Shown here: positions 2,229-9,362 of the stretch, in pieces
Layout: the number at the start of each line of letters is the position of its first letter
Numbering within the stretch: position 1 is the stretch's first letter
Sequence record: PQ382034.1
Length of the DNA stretch: 64,000 nucleotides
Direction: 5' to 3' (one strand)
From: Acinetobacter phage vB_AbaSI_3
Made by a program: the position numbers and the translations under genes
Notes under the pieces: generated by a model
Told to the model about the DNA's origin: nothing
Database searches by the model: none
Seen by the model: the letters and a program-made list of their open reading frames with translations, nothing else

Positions 2229-2429
2229 TTAAAGTACATGTTCATATTGTTTCAATAATTCGACTGAACGACGAATATCTTCATCCGTGTGAACTTCTGC
2301 ATCAATGCGTGCAGCCATTTCTAAATTTAAATTGCGATCAATTGCAGCTTGATGCTCATCAAAGAATCGTTCTTGCGCATGGTGATGATGATCAATTGCA
2401 GTACGTAATTTAATAATATCGATTTTCAT
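2229..2429 (-). CDS. small protein at the rIIA.1 position
   Basis: 66-aa ORF immediately upstream of rIIA on the same strand, as in T4. His-rich. Not recognised by sequence. Confidence 0.4.
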   Translation of the reverse strand: MKIDIIKLRTAIDHHHHAQERFFDEHQAAIDRNLNLEMAARIDAEVHTDEDIRRSVELLKQYEHVL

Positions 2430-2525
2430 TTCAATTTCCTCATCATGATATTTGATTTGATATGACTATTATACCAACAAATTATAGCAAAGTAAACAGT
2501 TTATTCAAAAAGTTTAGATAAAATT

Positions 2526-2547
2526 AAAGGACCCGTAGGTCCTTTTT
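2526..2547 (-). terminator. terminator hairpin
   Basis: AAAGGACC-CGTA-GGTCCTTTTT, followed by a T-run. Confidence 0.5.
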
Positions 2548-2645
2548 GTATTTTTCTTTACGTTCGTATTTTGAACGATCTTTAACAACCTGCATTTTGA
2601 ATGCAGGTGTTCTTACAGCTTTTGCGATCGGATTACGTTTACCTT

Positions 2646-2885
2646 TCATTTTTTCTCCGTGTATGATCTAAATAATCGATATGGGTACAAAATCGCAATG
2701 AGCGAATAAATTAACAAGTGAACTACTAACAGTGCTATCAATCCAACGACTGGCATTTGACAAATAAAATCAGTCTTGTTTGGTCCAAATTTATGATCAT
2801 GATCACCTTCTTCGACATAGGTGCTCCATTTAAATGTGCCGTTTAAATTTGTTTTGATAATATTGAGTAACTTCTTCATTTCCAT
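2646..2885 (-). CDS. hypothetical membrane protein
   Basis: 79 aa with a C-terminal hydrophobic helix. ATGA overlap with the upstream gene stop is possible at 2879. Confidence 0.35.
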   Translation of the reverse strand: MEMKKLLNIIKTNLNGTFKWSTYVEEGDHDHKFGPNKTDFICQMPVVGLIALLVVHLLIYSLIAILYPYRLFRSYTEKK

Positions 2886-4144
2886 AACTCCAAATATTTA
2901 TTCTCTAGATCTTCCGGTACAAAGAAATGGCTTGCAAAAAATGCGTCCATACCTGTAACAAGATTTCGATCTTCTCGAATAGACATACCACATGCTTTGT
3001 CGCCAATTATCCATGAACCTATGATAGGATAATAACCATCATGTGGTTGAATATCATGCCATTGTTGATACATATAGCCCCAGTGATCATATTCAGGCAC
3101 TTTGTGCGATCCGGGTGCTAAATGGCTAAGCTCTTCGCCTGAACAAAATTGTGAACGATAAATATTTGAACCTTCACGTCCATGAATTGCTTTCTTAGCA
3201 TACCGTCCAGATTTCGGACGATGGTTCCCATCAAAGCTTGCTAATAAGTTAGGATGATTAGGGAACATTTGCCATAATTTAACAAGCATGGCTTTGTTTG
3301 AAAGTAACATTTTCCATGCAGGTTCCATCCATCGTGTATTAGTGCAATCAAGAATGTCAGATCCAAATTTCTCTTCAGTCATCCATTCCCAAGGATAAAG
3401 TTTAAAACAATTTTTGATCTCTTGGTCTTGAAGATCAATGAACGATTTAGTTTCTGGACCAGTGCCAATACGTTCTTTCAAAAGGCCAATGTCTTGCATT
3501 TGCAGTTCTTTGACTGATAATCCTGCTCGAAGTGCAGAATCCATCAAATAAACTAAATTGCCAAAGTCTTCATGGCGGAATCCACCACTTGATGCAAAAT
3601 GAACTAATTCGCCAGGTTTAAATCGAGATTGCCATACTTCTTGAAGAGTTTCATCAATAAGATTATATTGAATGCGCAGATCGTCAGGATAATCTCTTCC
3701 ATCAGGAAGTTTCTTCATACCTTCGATATAATTCCATTGTGCAACAGAACACTCAAGAATTGAAACTGGCGTATCGCCATTGTACTCAAACATTTTCAAT
3801 GAATTGTCCGAGCCAAATGCAAGGTCAAAACGTCCATATAATGATTTGTCGCCACGTTTCCATGATTGTTCAATTAATGGAATTGAATTTTCATCCAAGT
3901 TGAAGTATTCAGGGTAATCTCCAGACGTGACCATTTGCTCTACCATTGCACATGACATATCATGAAGTTCTTGTGTTGCGGCTTGAATGCGATCAATTTC
4001 ACTTTCTGACATACCATACACTACACCTTCTTGCCAATACGGTGCACCTTCAGGACCGGATGGAGCATTCCAATAGTTGAAGCCGATTCCCTCTAAAAGC
4101 TCAACATGATTAGGGCGAATTTCGAAATTAGTATGTCGTTTCAT
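2876..4144 (-). CDS. glutathionylspermidine synthetase family protein (YgiC/YjfC-like ATP-grasp amide ligase)
   Basis: 422 aa. Blocks recalled from E. coli YgiC: FKLYPWE.M, EPAWK...SNKA, LW.MFPNHPNLL, IGSW..GD...G.GIREDR. Start context fine. Confidence 0.85.
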   Translation of the reverse strand: MKRHTNFEIRPNHVELLEGIGFNYWNAPSGPEGAPYWQEGVVYGMSESEIDRIQAATQELHDMSCAMVEQMVTSGDYPEYFNLDENSIPLIEQSWKRGDKSLYGRFDLAFGSDNSLKMFEYNGDTPVSILECSVAQWNYIEGMKKLPDGRDYPDDLRIQYNLIDETLQEVWQSRFKPGELVHFASSGGFRHEDFGNLVYLMDSALRAGLSVKELQMQDIGLLKERIGTGPETKSFIDLQDQEIKNCFKLYPWEWMTEEKFGSDILDCTNTRWMEPAWKMLLSNKAMLVKLWQMFPNHPNLLASFDGNHRPKSGRYAKKAIHGREGSNIYRSQFCSGEELSHLAPGSHKVPEYDHWGYMYQQWHDIQPHDGYYPIIGSWIIGDKACGMSIREDRNLVTGMDAFFASHFFVPEDLENKYLELWK

Positions 4145-4207
4145 ATTTTCACTCAGGTTGTAGTGTATAGAAGTATTTTAAACAATATTATTAGCGATGT
4201 AAACTGT

Positions 4208-4492
4208 TTATCTAAATTTAGTATATTCGCAACGATGTTGAGGGATTTTCATATAACGATCGGCTAATGTTAAACTAACATATGTGCCATCAGAATACCA
4301 TGTAATAGAACTATCGTTACCTGTATATGTAACAATTGAATCGCCTAAAAGTGATAAACATTTGAGCGTAACTGTGCCAGCAGGCGTATATCCCTGATTT
4401 GCCTTTGGGCGTTGCATTACAAAAATGCTCAATGCGATAACAATTCCAACAATTAAACAGAATATCATCTGTCTATTATTTAACTTACTCAT
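4208..4492 (-). CDS. hypothetical exported/membrane protein
   Basis: 94 aa with an N-terminal hydrophobic segment after a basic N-terminus. Confidence 0.4.
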   Translation of the reverse strand: MSKLNNRQMIFCLIVGIVIALSIFVMQRPKANQGYTPAGTVTLKCLSLLGDSIVTYTGNDSSITWYSDGTYVSLTLADRYMKIPQHRCEYTKFR

Positions 4493-4504
4493 AAAACCTC
4501 CAAA

Positions 4505-4521
4505 TGGGACCGAAGTCCCAA
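4505..4521 (-). terminator. terminator hairpin
   Basis: TGGGAC-CGAAG-TCCCA. A UUCG loop forms on the coding strand. Confidence 0.45.
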
Positions 4522-4526
4522 ATTAA

Positions 4527-5063
4527 TTAACCACCAGAAGATACAGCACCACCAAAACCACCACGAGACACTGAAGTACTACGTGAGACTGATGTGCTTC
4601 GAGATGTGGCGGCTCGAGCAGATACGGCACGAGATTCTGATGCACGATATGAATTTAAAGTACTACGAGCTGGTGGAACATATGCACTTGAGCCCATTGA
4701 ACGTTGTCGTTCTTTATACGAATTATATGAGCCATTAGACAACATATTGCCAAGCATCATACCCATGGCACCTGCCATTAGCATATCCATACCAGAGAAC
4801 CCAGAATCTGATGCAGCTTTAGATGCGGCAGCAGGATCAGTTTTATGGAGTTCAAGTAATTTTACCCAATCTTCATATGTGCCAGTATAACCTTTTGATT
4901 TAGCTTCTTCATATGATTTGTTAAGTGTATCTGCGACTTGAACAAATGCACCTTCAGGAGTTTGTGCCACACTTTCTGTCACAGCAACAGAATCATCTTT
5001 TGTACATCCGGCTAAAACGAAAGCCGGGACAATAAGCATTGCAATAGATTTTTTAAGTTTCAT
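4527..5063 (-). CDS. putative lipoprotein with Ser/Arg/Gly-rich low-complexity C-terminus
   Basis: Signal peptide plus lipobox (VLAGC). C-terminal SRSTSVSR repeats and a GG-rich tail. Confidence 0.6.
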   Translation of the reverse strand: MKLKKSIAMLIVPAFVLAGCTKDDSVAVTESVAQTPEGAFVQVADTLNKSYEEAKSKGYTGTYEDWVKLLELHKTDPAAASKAASDSGFSGMDMLMAGAMGMMLGNMLSNGSYNSYKERQRSMGSSAYVPPARSTLNSYRASESRAVSARAATSRSTSVSRSTSVSRGGFGGAVSSGG

Positions 5064-5166
5064 AAGTTTGCCTTAGTTGAAATAAACAATTAAACCGCAA
5101 GCCATAATAATTATTCCTATAAGGAATCCAGATGACCAGTTATACTCTGGAAACATAGTATCTCCA

Positions 5167-5508
5167 TTAAATATCAATGTTTGAGTACTGTGCAATGATT
5201 GCAAGTCCTACAGAAATGAAGACCAATCCAACCCAAGCTCCAACATCTAAGTTTTGATTAAGCATTGCTTTAGCTAGAAATGCGGTGGCAATGGCTCCAA
5301 GGCCTGACCACATGACATATAAAATTCCAGCTTGCATATATTTCAATGCAATAACACAAGCAATAAATGATCCGGCATATAATGCAGCACCAATCATCAA
5401 AGGTACAATATTATTAAATCCATCTGCCTTAGCCATATAAATCGTTGAGACAACGTCGGTTACAATGGCAACAAGTAACCATACTACTCCCAACTGAACT
5501 GGCGTCAT
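5167..5508 (-). CDS. SMR-family small multidrug/guanidinium/polyamine efflux protein (EmrE/SugE/MdtIJ-like)
   Basis: 113 aa with four predicted TM helices. Aligns to EmrE: TM1 acidic residue (VTDVVST vs AEVIGTT) and the conserved YxxWSGxG block (YVMWSGLG). Confidence 0.8.
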   Translation of the reverse strand: MTPVQLGVVWLLVAIVTDVVSTIYMAKADGFNNIVPLMIGAALYAGSFIACVIALKYMQAGILYVMWSGLGAIATAFLAKAMLNQNLDVGAWVGLVFISVGLAIIAQYSNIDI

Positions 5509-5864
5509 GCCAGTTCACCTAAAACAGTATATGCTTCGTTAAGCCAGTCTTCACGAGTGATATTGCCATCATCAGGTGCAATTGCAGTAGTGAACAATTT
5601 AATAACTTTCCATGTACGATCAGAATAATACGTGTTAGCCCATTCAGAAAATAAGCATGTATACTCATCAGCATCCTTTCGAATACCGAAAATACGTCGT
5701 AGTGTGCAAGCTTCTCGCTCTTCTCCCCATTCATCCTTTGACCAACCTAGAGTTTTGCCAATAACACAAGTGTTATATTCACCCATGCCAAATACGGTAT
5801 TTTCTGGCAATTGTTTCACTGCTTCGATTGTACGGAGAAGGCCTGTAGTTAAATTGATCTTCAT
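5505..5864 (-). CDS. hypothetical protein
   Basis: 119 aa. Start overlaps the downstream SMR gene start by 4 nt, suggesting translational coupling. Confidence 0.45.
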   Translation of the reverse strand: MKINLTTGLLRTIEAVKQLPENTVFGMGEYNTCVIGKTLGWSKDEWGEEREACTLRRIFGIRKDADEYTCLFSEWANTYYSDRTWKVIKLFTTAIAPDDGNITREDWLNEAYTVLGELA

Positions 5865-5938
5865 ATTAATTTACTCATTTGATTTAAGATAGAACCATTA
5901 TAACAACGGTTCTATCTCATGTAAACATTAAAAATGAA

Positions 5939-6958
5939 TTATTTTTGGATTAAATCCAACCAAATTTCTCGAATTTCAGTGGTAACAATTTTCTGCAATT
6001 CTGCTTTGAATTTTGAAGGTTGCTGAGCTGCATTCAAAGTAAGACCTTCACGTTCGGCTTCTTCAAAAATATCTTTCATTGTAAGACCCATTACTTTGCC
6101 AAAGTCTTTAGTTGTCACTTCACCAATGTGAGAAACAACATTCGAGATACGAGCTTTAGTAACATATTCACTGAATTTGCTCAAGAGTTCTAAGTCTTCA
6201 GGCGGTAACGGAGTAGGGATTTTAGGAAGTTTTGATTTGCCTTTTTCTTTAAACTTGTCAGTTTTATATTTGATCGCAAGGCGAGATCCACCACGCAAGA
6301 ACATTGGACTATTTGGCTTGATGACAAGGCCTTCTGCAACATTATCTTTAGGAGCAGGTTGTGGGTGAACGCTATACATATTTTCCCATGTCAATGATGG
6401 TACGATAGAATCGAATTCAACAGGTAATTTCAAAAGTTGTTCAAGTGTACCACGAGCAATTAATGGAGCGATTTTCAATCCACGATAATCGCAGAATTCT
6501 TGAACTTTATCATCAGCCCACCATCCATGTGAAAACCCTGCATCTGGTGCATCCATATAGATGTCAAATACATAGAATGATTTAGGGCCATAATCAACTT
6601 CTTTCTGGATTCCTTCACCTGCATATTCACCAAAGATTTGCATACTTTTGAATGAAGGCACGTTAGCAACAAGATCACTTTGAATTGCTTCAAATACGTC
6701 AATCAAGTCTTTCATTAGATCTTCATATCCGAAGAATTTTTCAGTTTCACCAATGAATCCTGAACGTTTTGCAGGTTTGATAGAGTCCGCTGTAATGACA
6801 ACCGAGAAGTTTGTGCCGTGAATTTTTTCACGAGCTACAAATTCTGTGTTGACTGAACCTTCACCTAGTGCAATAGCATCAAAACATTGGCGAATGAATT
6901 TATCGTTAGTGTGGTTTTCAAGGCTTGAATATTTAATGAAAGACATATTGTTCTCCAA
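5939..6958 (-). CDS. rnlB: RNA ligase 2 (Rnl2, T4 gp24.1-like)
   Basis: 339 aa. Near-colinear with T4 Rnl2: KYSSLENH, VAREKIHGTNFS (KxHGxN nucleotidyl-transfer motif), FGE.AG.GIQK.VDY, FYVFDI, KDFGKVMGLT. Confidence 0.9.
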   Translation of the reverse strand: MENNMSFIKYSSLENHTNDKFIRQCFDAIALGEGSVNTEFVAREKIHGTNFSVVITADSIKPAKRSGFIGETEKFFGYEDLMKDLIDVFEAIQSDLVANVPSFKSMQIFGEYAGEGIQKEVDYGPKSFYVFDIYMDAPDAGFSHGWWADDKVQEFCDYRGLKIAPLIARGTLEQLLKLPVEFDSIVPSLTWENMYSVHPQPAPKDNVAEGLVIKPNSPMFLRGGSRLAIKYKTDKFKEKGKSKLPKIPTPLPPEDLELLSKFSEYVTKARISNVVSHIGEVTTKDFGKVMGLTMKDIFEEAEREGLTLNAAQQPSKFKAELQKIVTTEIREIWLDLIQK

Positions 6959-7544: not shown

Positions 7545-9362
7545 TTACGCTGACATCCAATCTTTACGAAGTTGTGCATCATTACCAAATAGCATTTCAA
7601 ATTGTGCCTTCCAATTTTCAGGAAGTTTAACTACATCGAAATGTGGTTCACGAATAACTTTTTCATACTCTTCCATCTCCAAGCTTCCGAGACCCTTGAT
7701 GTAACGGAAACTATAGCCTTTAAGATTAGGTTTGTCTGCTTCATATTCATCAATTGTGTAGTACCATTTTTGGTCTTTGCCTTTCTGACAAATTGCAACA
7801 GGAGTTTTGACAAACTTGATTCGTCCTTGTTCAAACAATTCAGGCCAATTACTAAAGAATGCTAATAACGATGGATAGATCGAGCCAGTCCCGTCGACAT
7901 CGGCATCCGTCATAATTGCAATATTTCGATAATTTAGATTTTCTGCAGGTTCACCAATAGTTAATCCAGTGATTGCACAAATATCGAAAATTTCTTTGTT
8001 CTTGAGCATTTCTGCAGGTGTCATACCCCATGTATTCATTACTTTACCGCGTAATGGATAACCGCCATGAAGTTCACGATCACGAGTTGAAATTAAATAA
8101 CCAATCGCAGAATCACCTTCTGTTAAAAATAATGTTGTCTCAACTGTGTCATCACCGTATTTGTTAGCTTTAATATGTTTTGCAACTTTTGCCTTTGCAG
8201 CTTTCTTTGCAGCACGAGTGTTTGCAGCCTTTTCGGCAGCTAATAACTTTGCAAGAACTGCTTCAATGATAGGCATCAAAATAGATTCATTTGCAATAAG
8301 CATCCGAGACAATTTCTTGATGTCAATATCAATATGAGCTTTCACTTCACCCCATGGAGAAGTTAATCGTTCTTTTGTTTGTGAGTCAAATCGCATGTTT
8401 GGCATGTTCTTAATGAATAATAACATTGTCAAACATTCTTTGATACGTGCTTTATTGACTTCAACTTTATGGCGTCGTTTGATTTGCGGAATCAATTCAT
8501 TTGCCAATTCATCGATCACATAATCAATATGAGAACCACCAACCTTTGTGTGGATTGCATTGACAAATGACAGGTGTCTGAATCCATCATCTGAACGCCC
8601 AATAGCTAATTGAACGTTGTCCGTTTCCATGATGATTGCGTCTTCATCATACATTTTAGCGTATTTTTTGAAGTTTCCAAGTACTCGAACATTGTTGAAT
8701 TTGAATTGGATGTCTGGGTAAATAACTGCTAAGATTTGTAGACGATCCTCTACAATTTGTTCGATCGTGCTATCTATACCATCACAATCAAGCAATGAGA
8801 AATCCGGTACAAATGATACTTCAGTACCTTGTTTTCCACCTGCTTTTGTTTTCCAATCAATGTTTGACATGTTGTCTGAACATTTAACAACGATAGTATT
8901 TTCACCGTCACATGTTGTACCAATGAATTCTTTAGAGAAAATATTCGTTAATGAACTACCAACACCATTGAGACCTGCAGTTTTACGAGTTGCATCATCG
9001 CCAAAGTTGCCTCCGGCTTTAGTTCGAGTCCAACAAGCTACAGCACCAGGTAGTTGAGTGCCTTCTGGGGTAGTAATCATTGCCTGCGGAATACCACGAC
9101 CATTGTCTTTAACTGTAATTTGATTGCCTGAAATTTTGACTTCAATTTTATTTGCAAATGCAAAATCAGTTCGAATTGCTTCATCTAATGAATTATCAAT
9201 AATCTCATCAATAATTTTGACTAAAGCCGGAACATATTTAAGTGTTTGAAATTTGCCAAACAAAAACCGATCATGGTTTTCTGATGTTGTAGAACCAACA
9301 TACATGCCTGGACGCTTTAACACATGTTCACGATCAGATAACATTTTAATTTCAGTGCTCAT
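7545..9362 (-). CDS. 39: DNA topoisomerase II large subunit gp39 (GyrB-like ATPase + Toprim), fused 39+60 form
   Basis: 605 aa. LSDREHVLKRPGMYVGS, GHKL and Toprim blocks, and the Ala/Lys-rich linker typical of phage gp39. The length matches the fused form found where gene 60 is not separate. Confidence 0.95.
   Translation of the reverse strand: MSTEIKMLSDREHVLKRPGMYVGSTTSENHDRFLFGKFQTLKYVPALVKIIDEIIDNSLDEAIRTDFAFANKIEVKISGNQITVKDNGRGIPQAMITTPEGTQLPGAVACWTRTKAGGNFGDDATRKTAGLNGVGSSLTNIFSKEFIGTTCDGENTIVVKCSDNMSNIDWKTKAGGKQGTEVSFVPDFSLLDCDGIDSTIEQIVEDRLQILAVIYPDIQFKFNNVRVLGNFKKYAKMYDEDAIIMETDNVQLAIGRSDDGFRHLSFVNAIHTKVGGSHIDYVIDELANELIPQIKRRHKVEVNKARIKECLTMLLFIKNMPNMRFDSQTKERLTSPWGEVKAHIDIDIKKLSRMLIANESILMPIIEAVLAKLLAAEKAANTRAAKKAAKAKVAKHIKANKYGDDTVETTLFLTEGDSAIGYLISTRDRELHGGYPLRGKVMNTWGMTPAEMLKNKEIFDICAITGLTIGEPAENLNYRNIAIMTDADVDGTGSIYPSLLAFFSNWPELFEQGRIKFVKTPVAICQKGKDQKWYYTIDEYEADKPNLKGYSFRYIKGLGSLEMEEYEKVIREPHFDVVKLPENWKAQFEMLFGNDAQLRKDWMSA

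Follow-up and report, generated by a model that had tools for sequence, protein, structure and literature searches.

We have analyzed a block of genes at positions 2646-5864, on the minus strand, of a 64,000-nucleotide (nt) stretch of Acinetobacter phage vB_AbaSI_3 (PQ382034.1; the whole stretch is referred to below as the window). The phage is T4-like and belongs to the genus Lazarusvirus (Straboviridae, Twarogvirinae). The block, whose limits are exact boundaries of open reading frames (ORFs), contains the genes of a 422-amino-acid (aa) ligase of the YgiC/YjfC type (2876-4144), a 178-aa lipoprotein (4527-5063), and a 113-aa protein of the small multidrug resistance (SMR) family (5167-5508) in addition to a number of small proteins, and every gene of the region is on the minus strand. 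An initial annotation had placed accessory genes here beside rIIA, with RNA ligase 2 adjoining, and both the ORFs and the families have been confirmed; Pfam, PHROGs, and NCBIfam agree on the family assignments of the block proteins. Over bases 2400-6000 the identity is 97.6% to MD-2021a and about 96% to AM101, Lazarus, KARL-1, and some 30 others. For the block, identity to about 37 Lazarusvirus genomes is 96-98%, and it is also found in ZZ1, Acj61, and Acj9. It should be noted that the block itself is already annotated in dozens of Acinetobacter phage genomes, and in part misleadingly, the GenBank records of relatives labelling its genes as "glutathionylspermidine synthase/YgiC," "QacE/EmrE," and hypothetical proteins. 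The comparisons reported here indicate that the block is probably a phage version of a known bacterial ligase-lipoprotein module, and that its function should be sought in the envelope and in polyamines, not in glutathione or DNA.

The ligase matches GSP_synth (PF03738) with 359.5 bits (3e-107; cut-off 29.3) over positions 5-370 of the 371 of the hidden Markov model (HMM), and phrog_6215 at 1e-152. Among solved structures it is closest to E. coli YgiC (7uk8, 3e-69) and YjfC (7uk6, 9e-56), followed by trypanothione synthetase and the glutathionylspermidine (Gsp) synthetase GspS (Gss), so that the YgiC/YjfC-type ATP-grasp ligase of the initial annotation, with its full-length match, was correctly recognized. 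Identity over the full length is 37% to YgiC and 33% to YjfC, as against 23% to GspS. Alignment of GspS, YgiC, YjfC, and seven phage or bacterial homologs gave 30 invariant columns, and the phage ligase holds the family residue in all 30 of them; the residues kept include R105, D107, K117, E120, N122, D124, E131, K248, and E253, and further E274, N283, K284, K318, R323, N327, R390, and D392. We take these columns to be the ATP-grasp catalytic sites for Mg, ATP, and the acyl-phosphate on the basis of the GspS structures. The synthetase fold and the invariant Arg, Asp, Glu, Asn, and Lys residues are thus common to the phage ligase, GspS, and trypanothione synthetase, and the same invariant residues are found in the two E. 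coli enzymes; loss of catalytic residues, which had been put forward as a possible objection to a ligase function, is not seen. GspS differs in having an N-terminal CHAP amidase, and its first 200 residues or so find no counterpart in the phage protein when this is aligned with E. coli Gss. YgiC and YjfC are equally without an amidase domain, and the proposal that the enzyme would turn out to be YgiC-like in this respect was borne out. As no hydrophobic segment is apparent from hydropathy, the protein is classed by its sequence as a stand-alone, cytoplasmic ATP-grasp acid-amine ligase of the YgiC/YjfC type with intact catalytic residues. A scenario in which phages carry the ligase only because their hosts lack one was rejected, since a DUF1190-ligase pair is present in a contig of an Acinetobacter host and in several further Acinetobacter genomes.

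By the same comparisons the GenBank label "bifunctional glutathionylspermidine synthetase/amidase" is wrong for the phage ligase, which scores 91.6 bits against the NCBIfam GspS equivalog PRK10507, far below the cut-off of 882, and does so over residues 266-398 only. Of the characterized enzymes, YgiC and YjfC are stated to be without Gsp synthetase activity in PMC12506659 (citing Sui 2012), and in PMC11762307 (citing Pederick 2023) they are described as peptide–spermidine ligases which use ATP to link the carboxylate of a peptide to spermidine through an amide bond, the physiological peptide not being established. The RefSeq name for both is now "peptide--spermidine ligase." These data bear on the thiol-centered interpretation of the initial annotation, according to which Gsp or another thiol-polyamine conjugate would alter the redox or polyamine pools of the host and the SMR protein would export the conjugate or spermidine. 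Membership in the GSP_synth family, with a catalytic core common to GspS and trypanothione synthetase, speaks for such a product, as does the position of the SMR gene in the same predicted transcription unit. We nevertheless consider it improbable: the enzyme is nearer to YgiC and YjfC, whose described activity is a different one, it has no amidase domain, and its conserved partner (see below) is a lipoprotein and not a thiol-metabolism gene. The phage ligase probably does not make glutathionylspermidine.

The lipoprotein has, by sequence pattern, a signal sequence, MKLKKSIAMLIVPAFVLAGC, with an LAGC lipobox, and its hydropathy peaks at 1.58 over residues 3-21 (Kyte-Doolittle, window of 19). 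It belongs to phrog_13808, and its match to DUF1190 (PF06693), the family of YgiB and YjfM, is marginal, with 23.9 bits against a cut-off of 22 and coverage of HMM positions 64-153 only, in the C-terminal half; the orthologs of Acj61 and ZZ1 score 23.9 and 18.2. The mature protein has no Cys after the lipobox, whereas YgiB, YjfM, the protein of Aeromonas phage 44RR, and the orphan phage copies described below have at least four. The Cys-rich (4-Cys) N-terminal DUF1190 domain, described in the literature as "metal-chelating," is therefore lacking, and this Cys-poor variant is shared with the proteins of loci L009 and L099. What the phage protein keeps is the Met/Gly-rich segment and an Arg/Ser-rich tail, its C-terminus being ...SRGGFGGAVSSGG-COOH. 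On these features we assign it to the DUF1190 (YgiB/YjfM) family as a clade-specific variant.

In the E. coli operons ygiB-ygiC and yjfL-yjfM-yjfC the DUF1190 gene is immediately upstream of the ligase gene, and in the window the lipoprotein gene lies 382 nt upstream of the ligase gene on the same strand, with a further gene, p94, between them. The generality of this arrangement was addressed by fetching 80 bacterial and 80 viral loci with ligase relatives. An upstream same-strand ORF ending in Gly-Gly was present in 74 of the 165 loci with enough upstream sequence, compared with a background of 0.5% among 8,548 ORFs, and 67 of 70 GG-ending partners were located upstream of the ligase. When the criterion was relaxed to a neighboring same-strand ORF whose last 45 residues contain GG[F/Y]-x, the partner was found in 142 of 173 loci; a few of these are incidental and the true figure is about 140. 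Loci with a ligase and a tail-bearing partner span many bacterial phyla and also viral contigs. Pairing was likewise found in the Aeromonas T4-like phage 44RR2.8t, where ORF096c matches DUF1190 at 1.9e-21 and lies upstream of the phage's own ligase gene, in Aeromonas phage LAh_8 (DUF1190 match at 4e-31), in Acj61 and ZZ1, and weakly in phiRSL1. Judged by this gene order, the DUF1190/RGGFG lipoprotein is the conserved partner of the ligase. The initial annotation, which had not recognized the lipoprotein as such, took ligase and SMR protein as the core pair, and in this it has to be corrected.

Operons of an ATP-grasp ligase, a DUF1190 lipoprotein, DUF350, and a K+ channel have been linked to PspA or band-7 proteins (PMC11237479). 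A third membrane gene near the ligase was a recurrent finding in our survey as well, DUF350 being present in 35 of the 80 genomes and about 22 of the 80 viral contigs, and an Ion_trans_2 channel-like gene in 14 of the 80 viral contigs, LAh_8 among them. The LAh_8 locus (L185, 3630-5763) begins with a 124-aa Ion_trans_2 channel-like gene, continues with the DUF1190 gene, which overlaps it, and ends with the ligase gene; the last of these is annotated as two coding sequences (gp032 and gp031) and may be frameshifted or split.

Two alternative explanations have to be seen in the light of this distribution. In the first, the lipoprotein would act by itself in superinfection exclusion or in masking a receptor, as many phage lipoproteins do, and ligase and SMR would be unrelated accessory genes which have only an early accessory-gene region beside rIIA in common with it. 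Orphan DUF1190 lipoproteins are indeed widespread in ligase-free phages, ygiB belongs to the operon of tolC, whose product serves phages as a receptor (PMC11762307), and the region from rIIA to gene 39 differs among T4-like phages. Adjacency of ligase and lipoprotein across bacterial phyla and in unrelated phages (Aeromonas T4-likes, LAh_8, phiRSL1, jumbo contigs) makes chance co-location very unlikely, and deletion of ygiBC leaves TolC unaffected (reviewed in PMC11762307); we hold out little prospect for this explanation. The second, raised for a polyamine in the initial annotation, is that a polyamine or an amino acid would be attached by the ligase to a nucleotide or to a base of the DNA. 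Hypermodification has the general precedent of amide-forming steps in its favor, together with the neighboring genes for RnlB and topoisomerase, but we regard it as very improbable, given that searches with Pfam and PHROGs revealed no kinase, glycosylase-like, or transferase hypermodification gene in the unit, that all conserved partners are membrane or exported proteins, and that the ligase-lipoprotein pair is chromosomal in many non-phage contexts in many bacterial phyla.

The feature which unites the partners is found at their C-terminus. The window lipoprotein ends in ...SVSRGGFGGAVSSGG, in which the RGGFG motif leads into a short stretch of small residues; YgiB ends in ...TRGGFGES…SRSMGG and YjfM in ...SRGGYGRSSSARGHWGG, and the same signature is present in Aeromonas phage 44RR, phiRSL1, and Acj61. 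Of 123 distinct partner tails from the ligase loci, 113 have an Arg before GGF, 108 have 8-14 residues between the motif and the C-terminus (median 11), and 94% terminate in G, S, or A, as against 29.5% of background ORFs. The RGGFG motif, the length of the tail, and the small last residue are thus the constrained features. An invariant terminal Gly-Gly was also considered and was rejected, as S, GS, SS, or A is found at the end of roughly half of the partners. No mention of the signature was found in the portions of the literature on this gene association that were available to us.

Phages also carry the lipoprotein without the ligase. While the ligase as query retrieved 116 phage records, nearly all from Acinetobacter and Aeromonas phages, a tblastn search with YgiB retrieved 138, including those of Klebsiella, Erwinia, Cronobacter, Serratia, and Citrobacter phages. 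More than 130 records of enterobacterial phages (T4-likes, Vequintavirinae, and jumbo phages) have an orphan DUF1190 lipoprotein with no ligase, and all five orphans inspected (Moon, Ea35-70, CR3, GAP32, and KpS8) show RGGFG, then 8-22 residues, and a GG before the stop. Since so many orphan copies retain the RGGFG…GG end, the distribution suggests that it is the lipoprotein which is selected for in phages. Orphan lipoproteins could, we infer, be serviced by YgiC or YjfC of the host. In GAP32 the orphan gene follows four paralogous genes annotated as membrane proteins with three transmembrane (TM) segments.

The SMR protein matches PF00893 with 49.4 bits (6.8e-13; cut-off 23.7) and has four hydropathy peaks, corresponding to four hydrophobic segments. 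On this basis it is a genuine 4-TM member of the SMR family, of an Acinetobacter-specific subfamily. It resembles EmrE/Qac pumps and MdtJI in its length of about 110 aa, its four TM segments, and its gapless alignment to EmrE (7mgx, 49 bits, compared to 22.7 bits for the Gdx-Clo structure), and yet it reaches no cut-off of a curated SMR subfamily: the NCBIfam scores are 57 for SMR_qac_int (cut-off 188), 50 for EmrE (162-226), 49 for MdtI (103), 25.5 for SugE (126), and 20 for MdtJ (122). The suggestion that the protein is EmrE/MdtIJ-like therefore stands in so far as it is nearer to the EmrE/Qac/MdtI group (49-57 bits), Gdx/SugE giving 25 bits, and falls short in that no subfamily can be assigned and that the residue opposite the essential Glu14 of EmrE is an Asp. 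This residue, Asp18 in the gapless alignment, is invariant in 13 homologs and sets the whole subfamily apart from EmrE/Qac, while the equivalents of EmrE Tyr40, Tyr60, and Trp63 are kept. The nearest cellular relatives are uncharacterized chromosomal Acinetobacter genes, which are 56-58% identical, also have the Asp, and are near no ligase. E14D-EmrE confers no drug resistance, because its pKa is shifted below the physiological range, and proton-coupled export is not possible for it at physiological pH (PMC4664823). As Asp replaces Glu14 and this replacement gives no resistance in EmrE, the "QacE" label is unsupported, and the sequence criteria above do not justify either "QacE" or "EmrE" as a GenBank name; coupling in the phage protein probably differs from that of canonical pumps. 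The same residue counts against export of a Gsp conjugate, as do some 160 other ligase loci with no SMR gene.

Matches to the SMR protein were found in 71 of 50,697 phage records, 56 of the 71 being from Acinetobacter, and the description of such transporters as rare in phage genomes is a fair one. It should be noted that several contigs deposited as "Acinetobacter phage MD-2021a" (50-305 kb), for example CAKLQF020000029.1, CAKLQH020000002.1, and CAKLQF020000002.1/3, carry mpl, hpt, dsbC, and guanine deaminase genes; these appear to be bacterial host contigs which inflate the phage counts of SMR and ligase matches. SMR genes within 5 kb of a ligase gene are confined to loci whose ligase has 51% or more identity to that of the window, and the linked loci comprise four Twarogvirinae lineages and two large contigs, which makes the pairing proposed in the initial annotation a narrow one. 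In the 381-kb IMG/VR contig the order is SMR, p94-like, a 195-aa protein, lipoprotein, and ligase, and in the 358-kb ENA contig SMR, lipoprotein, and ligase with the genes overlapping. The SMR proteins of these two unrelated contigs are 42-52% identical and also have the Asp at position 14, so the order SMR-lipoprotein-ligase recurs. A 146-aa ORF precedes the chromosomal Acinetobacter SMR gene and gives a weak, sub-threshold winged helix-turn-helix match; p119, the protein encoded upstream of the phage SMR gene, was considered as its counterpart and rejected, there being no similarity.

Expression signals were read from the sequence. The region's best match to a sigma-70-type promoter, TTTACA-17-TATAAT with an extended TG and 11 of 12 consensus matches, lies at 5897-5925 on the minus strand, inside the 75-nt gap after rnlB and upstream of p119, and is likely the early promoter of the block. 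A further promoter-like site on the same strand (TTTACA-17-TAAAAT, 10 of 12 matches; 4175-4203) is directly upstream of the ligase gene. Promoter-like sites are overall not enriched, 23 having been found where 18.7±3.7 are expected. In the 35-nt gap between the lipoprotein and p94 genes the minus strand has a GGGAC-UUCG-GUCCC tetraloop hairpin (4506-4519), which could be an element of mRNA stability or processing. At the other end a perfect 8-bp hairpin, AAAGGACC-CGTA-GGTCCTTT (2526-2545), is terminator-like on both strands, overlaps the stop of the DUF7230 gene that would be the last of the unit, and is located just before the promoter-like sites of rIIA.1 (2468-2508). These putative sites fit a single early transcription unit with an internal promoter.

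The ratio of nonsynonymous to synonymous divergence (dN/dS) is 0.03-0.25 for every gene, meaning purifying selection, and selection is strongest on the ligase (0.03 in the comparison with ZZ1), followed by p94 (0.07), SMR (0.08), lipoprotein (0.12), and p119 (0.16). The SMR gene is full-length in essentially every phage relative; disruption in close relatives, which would be the mark of a decaying cargo gene, had been raised in the initial annotation and was not observed. Protein identity between the window and ZZ1 is 95% for the ligase and 67% for RnlB. Ligase, p94, and lipoprotein have dS of 0.6-0.84 and 84-95% protein identity, as against dS of 1.3-1.45 and 61-85% identity for SMR, p119, p79, and rnlB, and the lower dS of the core trio relative to its flanks implies that it has been exchanged more recently or is more constrained. 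The mosaic divergence suggests the former, with a more recent exchange of the trio between genera.

A detailed scenario can be proposed from these observations: the block would be an early-expressed envelope and polyamine module, the phage version of YgiB-YgiC and YjfM-YjfC, and to this description as a whole we give an even chance. It would be transcribed early from sigma-70-like promoters as one unit together with its small membrane proteins, and in the infected cell the ligase would join a host polyamine to the C-terminus of a peptide. Since 1,3-diaminopropane is the main polyamine of Acinetobacter, the amine need not be spermidine and may be a different one there. The best candidate for the peptide would be the tail of the lipoprotein, consisting of RGGFG and some 8-14 small residues with Gly, Ser, or Ala at the end (GG in this phage), and the proposed substrate of the phage enzyme is accordingly the tail peptide SRSTSVSRGGFGGAVSSGG. 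This candidate is the most economical one because the end lies at a fixed distance from RGGFG and has a small last residue like the Gly of glutathione. The tail would gain a cationic end before or during export, and the lipoprotein would be the effector at the envelope; phages with the lipoprotein alone presumably rely on the ligases of their hosts. The SMR protein, of the Asp14 type, may handle a small cation of this chemistry, either the polyamine or the conjugate; it takes the place held in other versions of the module by DUF350 or a small K+-channel-like protein. Stabilization or re-tuning of the host envelope during infection is suggested as the net effect, which agrees with the links of the bacterial operons to Psp/envelope stress and to tolC. 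The individual steps are graded lower than the module itself. That the tail is the substrate of the ligase remains a tentative proposal, and transport of polyamine or conjugate by the SMR protein is put forward with similar reserve. Most speculative is the general extension, in which DUF1190 proteins would be the ribosomally made substrates of YgiC-type ligases and C-terminal polyamination would be a new bacterial and phage modification providing the lipoprotein with a cationic tether. Under this extension, and with the same low expectation, phages might bring either the lipoprotein alone (enterobacterial phages) or the whole kit with a cation transporter or channel (Acinetobacter and Aeromonas phages), and the purpose might be the conditioning of the host envelope early in infection.

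Several observations weigh against this scenario, the foremost being topology. With a signal peptide and a lipobox the tail should be in the periplasm, the ligase being cytoplasmic. The Met/Gly-rich segment was considered as a second TM segment which would hold the tail in the cytoplasm and was rejected, its hydropathy being below 1.0 in the window protein and in YgiB (the highest value, 1.33, is that of 44RR, and the GAP32 version is polar); as this segment is not hydrophobic enough, the topology problem stands. In addition the terminal GG is not universal, the window lipoprotein has no 4-Cys domain and barely passes the Pfam threshold, and the tight coupling seen in bacteria is lost through the insertion of p94 between lipoprotein and ligase. 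The chromosomal SMR homologs are linked to no ligase, which means that the phage SMR gene may be an independent cargo gene. Finally, in Ac42 (locus L004, 2597-5239) the ligase, at 66% identity, and the DUF7230 gene are kept, and no lipoprotein or SMR gene is detectable nearby; lipoprotein, p94, and SMR are replaced by ORFs of 142, 138, and 109 aa, which are unrelated to them and without Pfam matches, so that Ac42 represents a naturally occurring "ligase-only" variant.

A soluble product would avoid the difficulty of topology. The ligase would then make a small peptide-polyamine or other acid-amine metabolite, the lipoprotein and the SMR protein, like their DUF350 or K+-channel equivalents, would sense, bind, or move the metabolite or free polyamines, and the RGGFG tail would be a binding or regulatory element in place of a substrate. 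The in vitro activity given for YgiC and YjfC in PMC11762307 is indeed on peptides. The substrates of SMR proteins are small cations, with MdtI, a subunit of a spermidine exporter, scoring at 49.4 bits about as high as EmrE, and the terminal residue of the tail is not invariant. What a soluble product leaves unexplained is the constrained distance between RGGFG and the small C-terminus as well as the more than 130 phage records in which the lipoprotein occurs alone with its end conserved, and Pfam and PHROGs revealed no candidate gene for peptide biosynthesis in the block. We view it as a possible alternative, on the doubtful side and about as likely as polyamination of the tail.

Of the known systems the closest are thus tolC-ygiBC and yjfIJKLMC of E. 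coli, with a ligase of the same family and a lipoprotein which, like that of the phage, has a lipobox and a Met/Gly-rich segment, terminates in an R-GGF/Y-G…GG-COOH tail, and is encoded upstream on the same strand. They differ from the phage block in that the two E. coli genes abut, in the 4-Cys domain, in having a YjfL-type DUF350 protein where the phage has the SMR protein, and in PspA, DUF2170, and DUF2491 genes, for which the phage block has no equivalent. The modules of the Aeromonas phages 44RR2.8t/31/25 and LAh_8 have the DUF1190 lipoprotein upstream of a YgiC-type ligase as in the window, and those of the Aeromonas T4-likes share small ORFs between lipoprotein and ligase and a small overlapping ORF after the ligase; LAh_8 has in addition the gene of a small cation channel directly upstream. 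The Aeromonas modules are distinguished by a ligase identity of 30-32%, Cys-rich lipoproteins, the lack of an SMR gene, and other genome positions, that of 44RR being near tk/rI with a band-7 lipoprotein nearby. In GspS the C-terminal Gly carboxylate is activated and passed to the amine of a polyamine. Amidation of a C-terminal Gly-Gly carboxylate by spermidine in an ATP-dependent reaction is known from SUMO and ubiquitin (PMC12270671). For the DUF1190 tail this is an analogy only, with the same proposed chemistry and no homology, and the route is different, SUMO and ubiquitin using an E1/E2 thioester and the phage ligase an ATP-grasp acyl-phosphate.

Several of these Acinetobacter phages are therapy candidates, and the unsupported label of "QacE quaternary-ammonium resistance" matters here, because safety screens of therapeutic phages flag "resistance genes." The adjacency of the genes, the length-constrained RGGFG tail, and the orphan phage lipoproteins together provide a specific hypothesis for the YgiBC/YjfMC pair of the E. 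coli "unknome." Should polyamination be wrong, the block would be one more phage-borne membrane and polyamine accessory module.

The remaining genes of the block are small. The first of the unit, p119 (119 aa, 5505-5864, phrog_21305), is predicted to be soluble, its stop and the SMR start have 4 nt (ATGA) in common, and apart from a weak match in Acj9 it is restricted to Lazarus- and Zedzedvirus; it matches nothing in Pfam, NCBIfam, or PADLOC, and none of the PADLOC defense models matches any block protein. In Acj61 a 234-aa protein takes its place. A candidate mini-ORF of 27 aa, MFPEYNWSSGFLIGIIIMACGLIVYFN, was read from the sequence at 5073-5156, between the lipoprotein and SMR genes and on the same strand; it is hydrophobic with a single TM segment and a GGAG Shine-Dalgarno sequence, whereas the list of ORFs has it start at an upstream TTG. 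It is kept in Lazarusvirus only (L001, L095), there is no room for it in ZZ1, and it is unannotated in relatives, so that it is a possible gene of uncertain status.

The gene inserted between lipoprotein and ligase, p94 (94 aa, 4208-4492, phrog_20143), encodes a protein with an N-terminal hydrophobic anchor and a small beta-rich domain with two Cys residues, which is probably periplasmic. The initial annotation had counted two exported proteins or lipoproteins, and whereas that at 4527-5063 is a lipoprotein, p94 is exported but is not one. It is found in Lazarus-, Zedzed-, and Lasallevirus, in Acj9, and in contig L099, and represents a clade-specific core gene; exhaustive HMMER searching of 1.8 billion representatives gave 11 clusters of homologs, of which a word index finds one. 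Its GenBank label of "membrane-bound lysozyme inhibitor" finds no support in Pfam. Single-sequence AlphaFold2 models of p94 and p119 had a predicted local distance difference test (pLDDT) of 62.5 and 50.3, too poor for fold searches. Acj61 has two tandem p94 paralogs between lipoprotein and ligase (locus L003, 3372-3926).

Outside the block, and also on the minus strand, are rIIA (2-2209) and rIIA.1 (2229-2429) on one side and on the other the RNA ligase 2 gene (RnlB, 5939-6958, with RNA_ligase and T4_Rnl2_C matches) and the gene of the topoisomerase II large subunit (7545-9362), annotated as "60plus39" in relatives. As the latter is one ORF of 605 aa, there is no split gene 60/39 arrangement and no T4 mobA here. 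At the downstream end of the block p79 (79 aa, 2646-2885), a membrane protein whose single TM segment is C-terminal, has a 10-nt overlap with the stop of the ligase gene; it is missing from Kimel-type Lazarusviruses, in which the ligase coordinates are shifted by about 228 nt, and from L096, and is dispensable. It is followed by the gene of a 41-aa DUF7230 protein, MKGKRNPIAKAVRTPAFKMQVVKDRSKYERKEKYKKDLRVL (2524-2649, minus strand; PF23876 at 1e-12), which is very basic, follows the ligase in all Twarogvirinae phages examined, Ac42 included, and has a K/R-rich pattern that is presumably like that of small ribosome-associated peptides such as ArfA.

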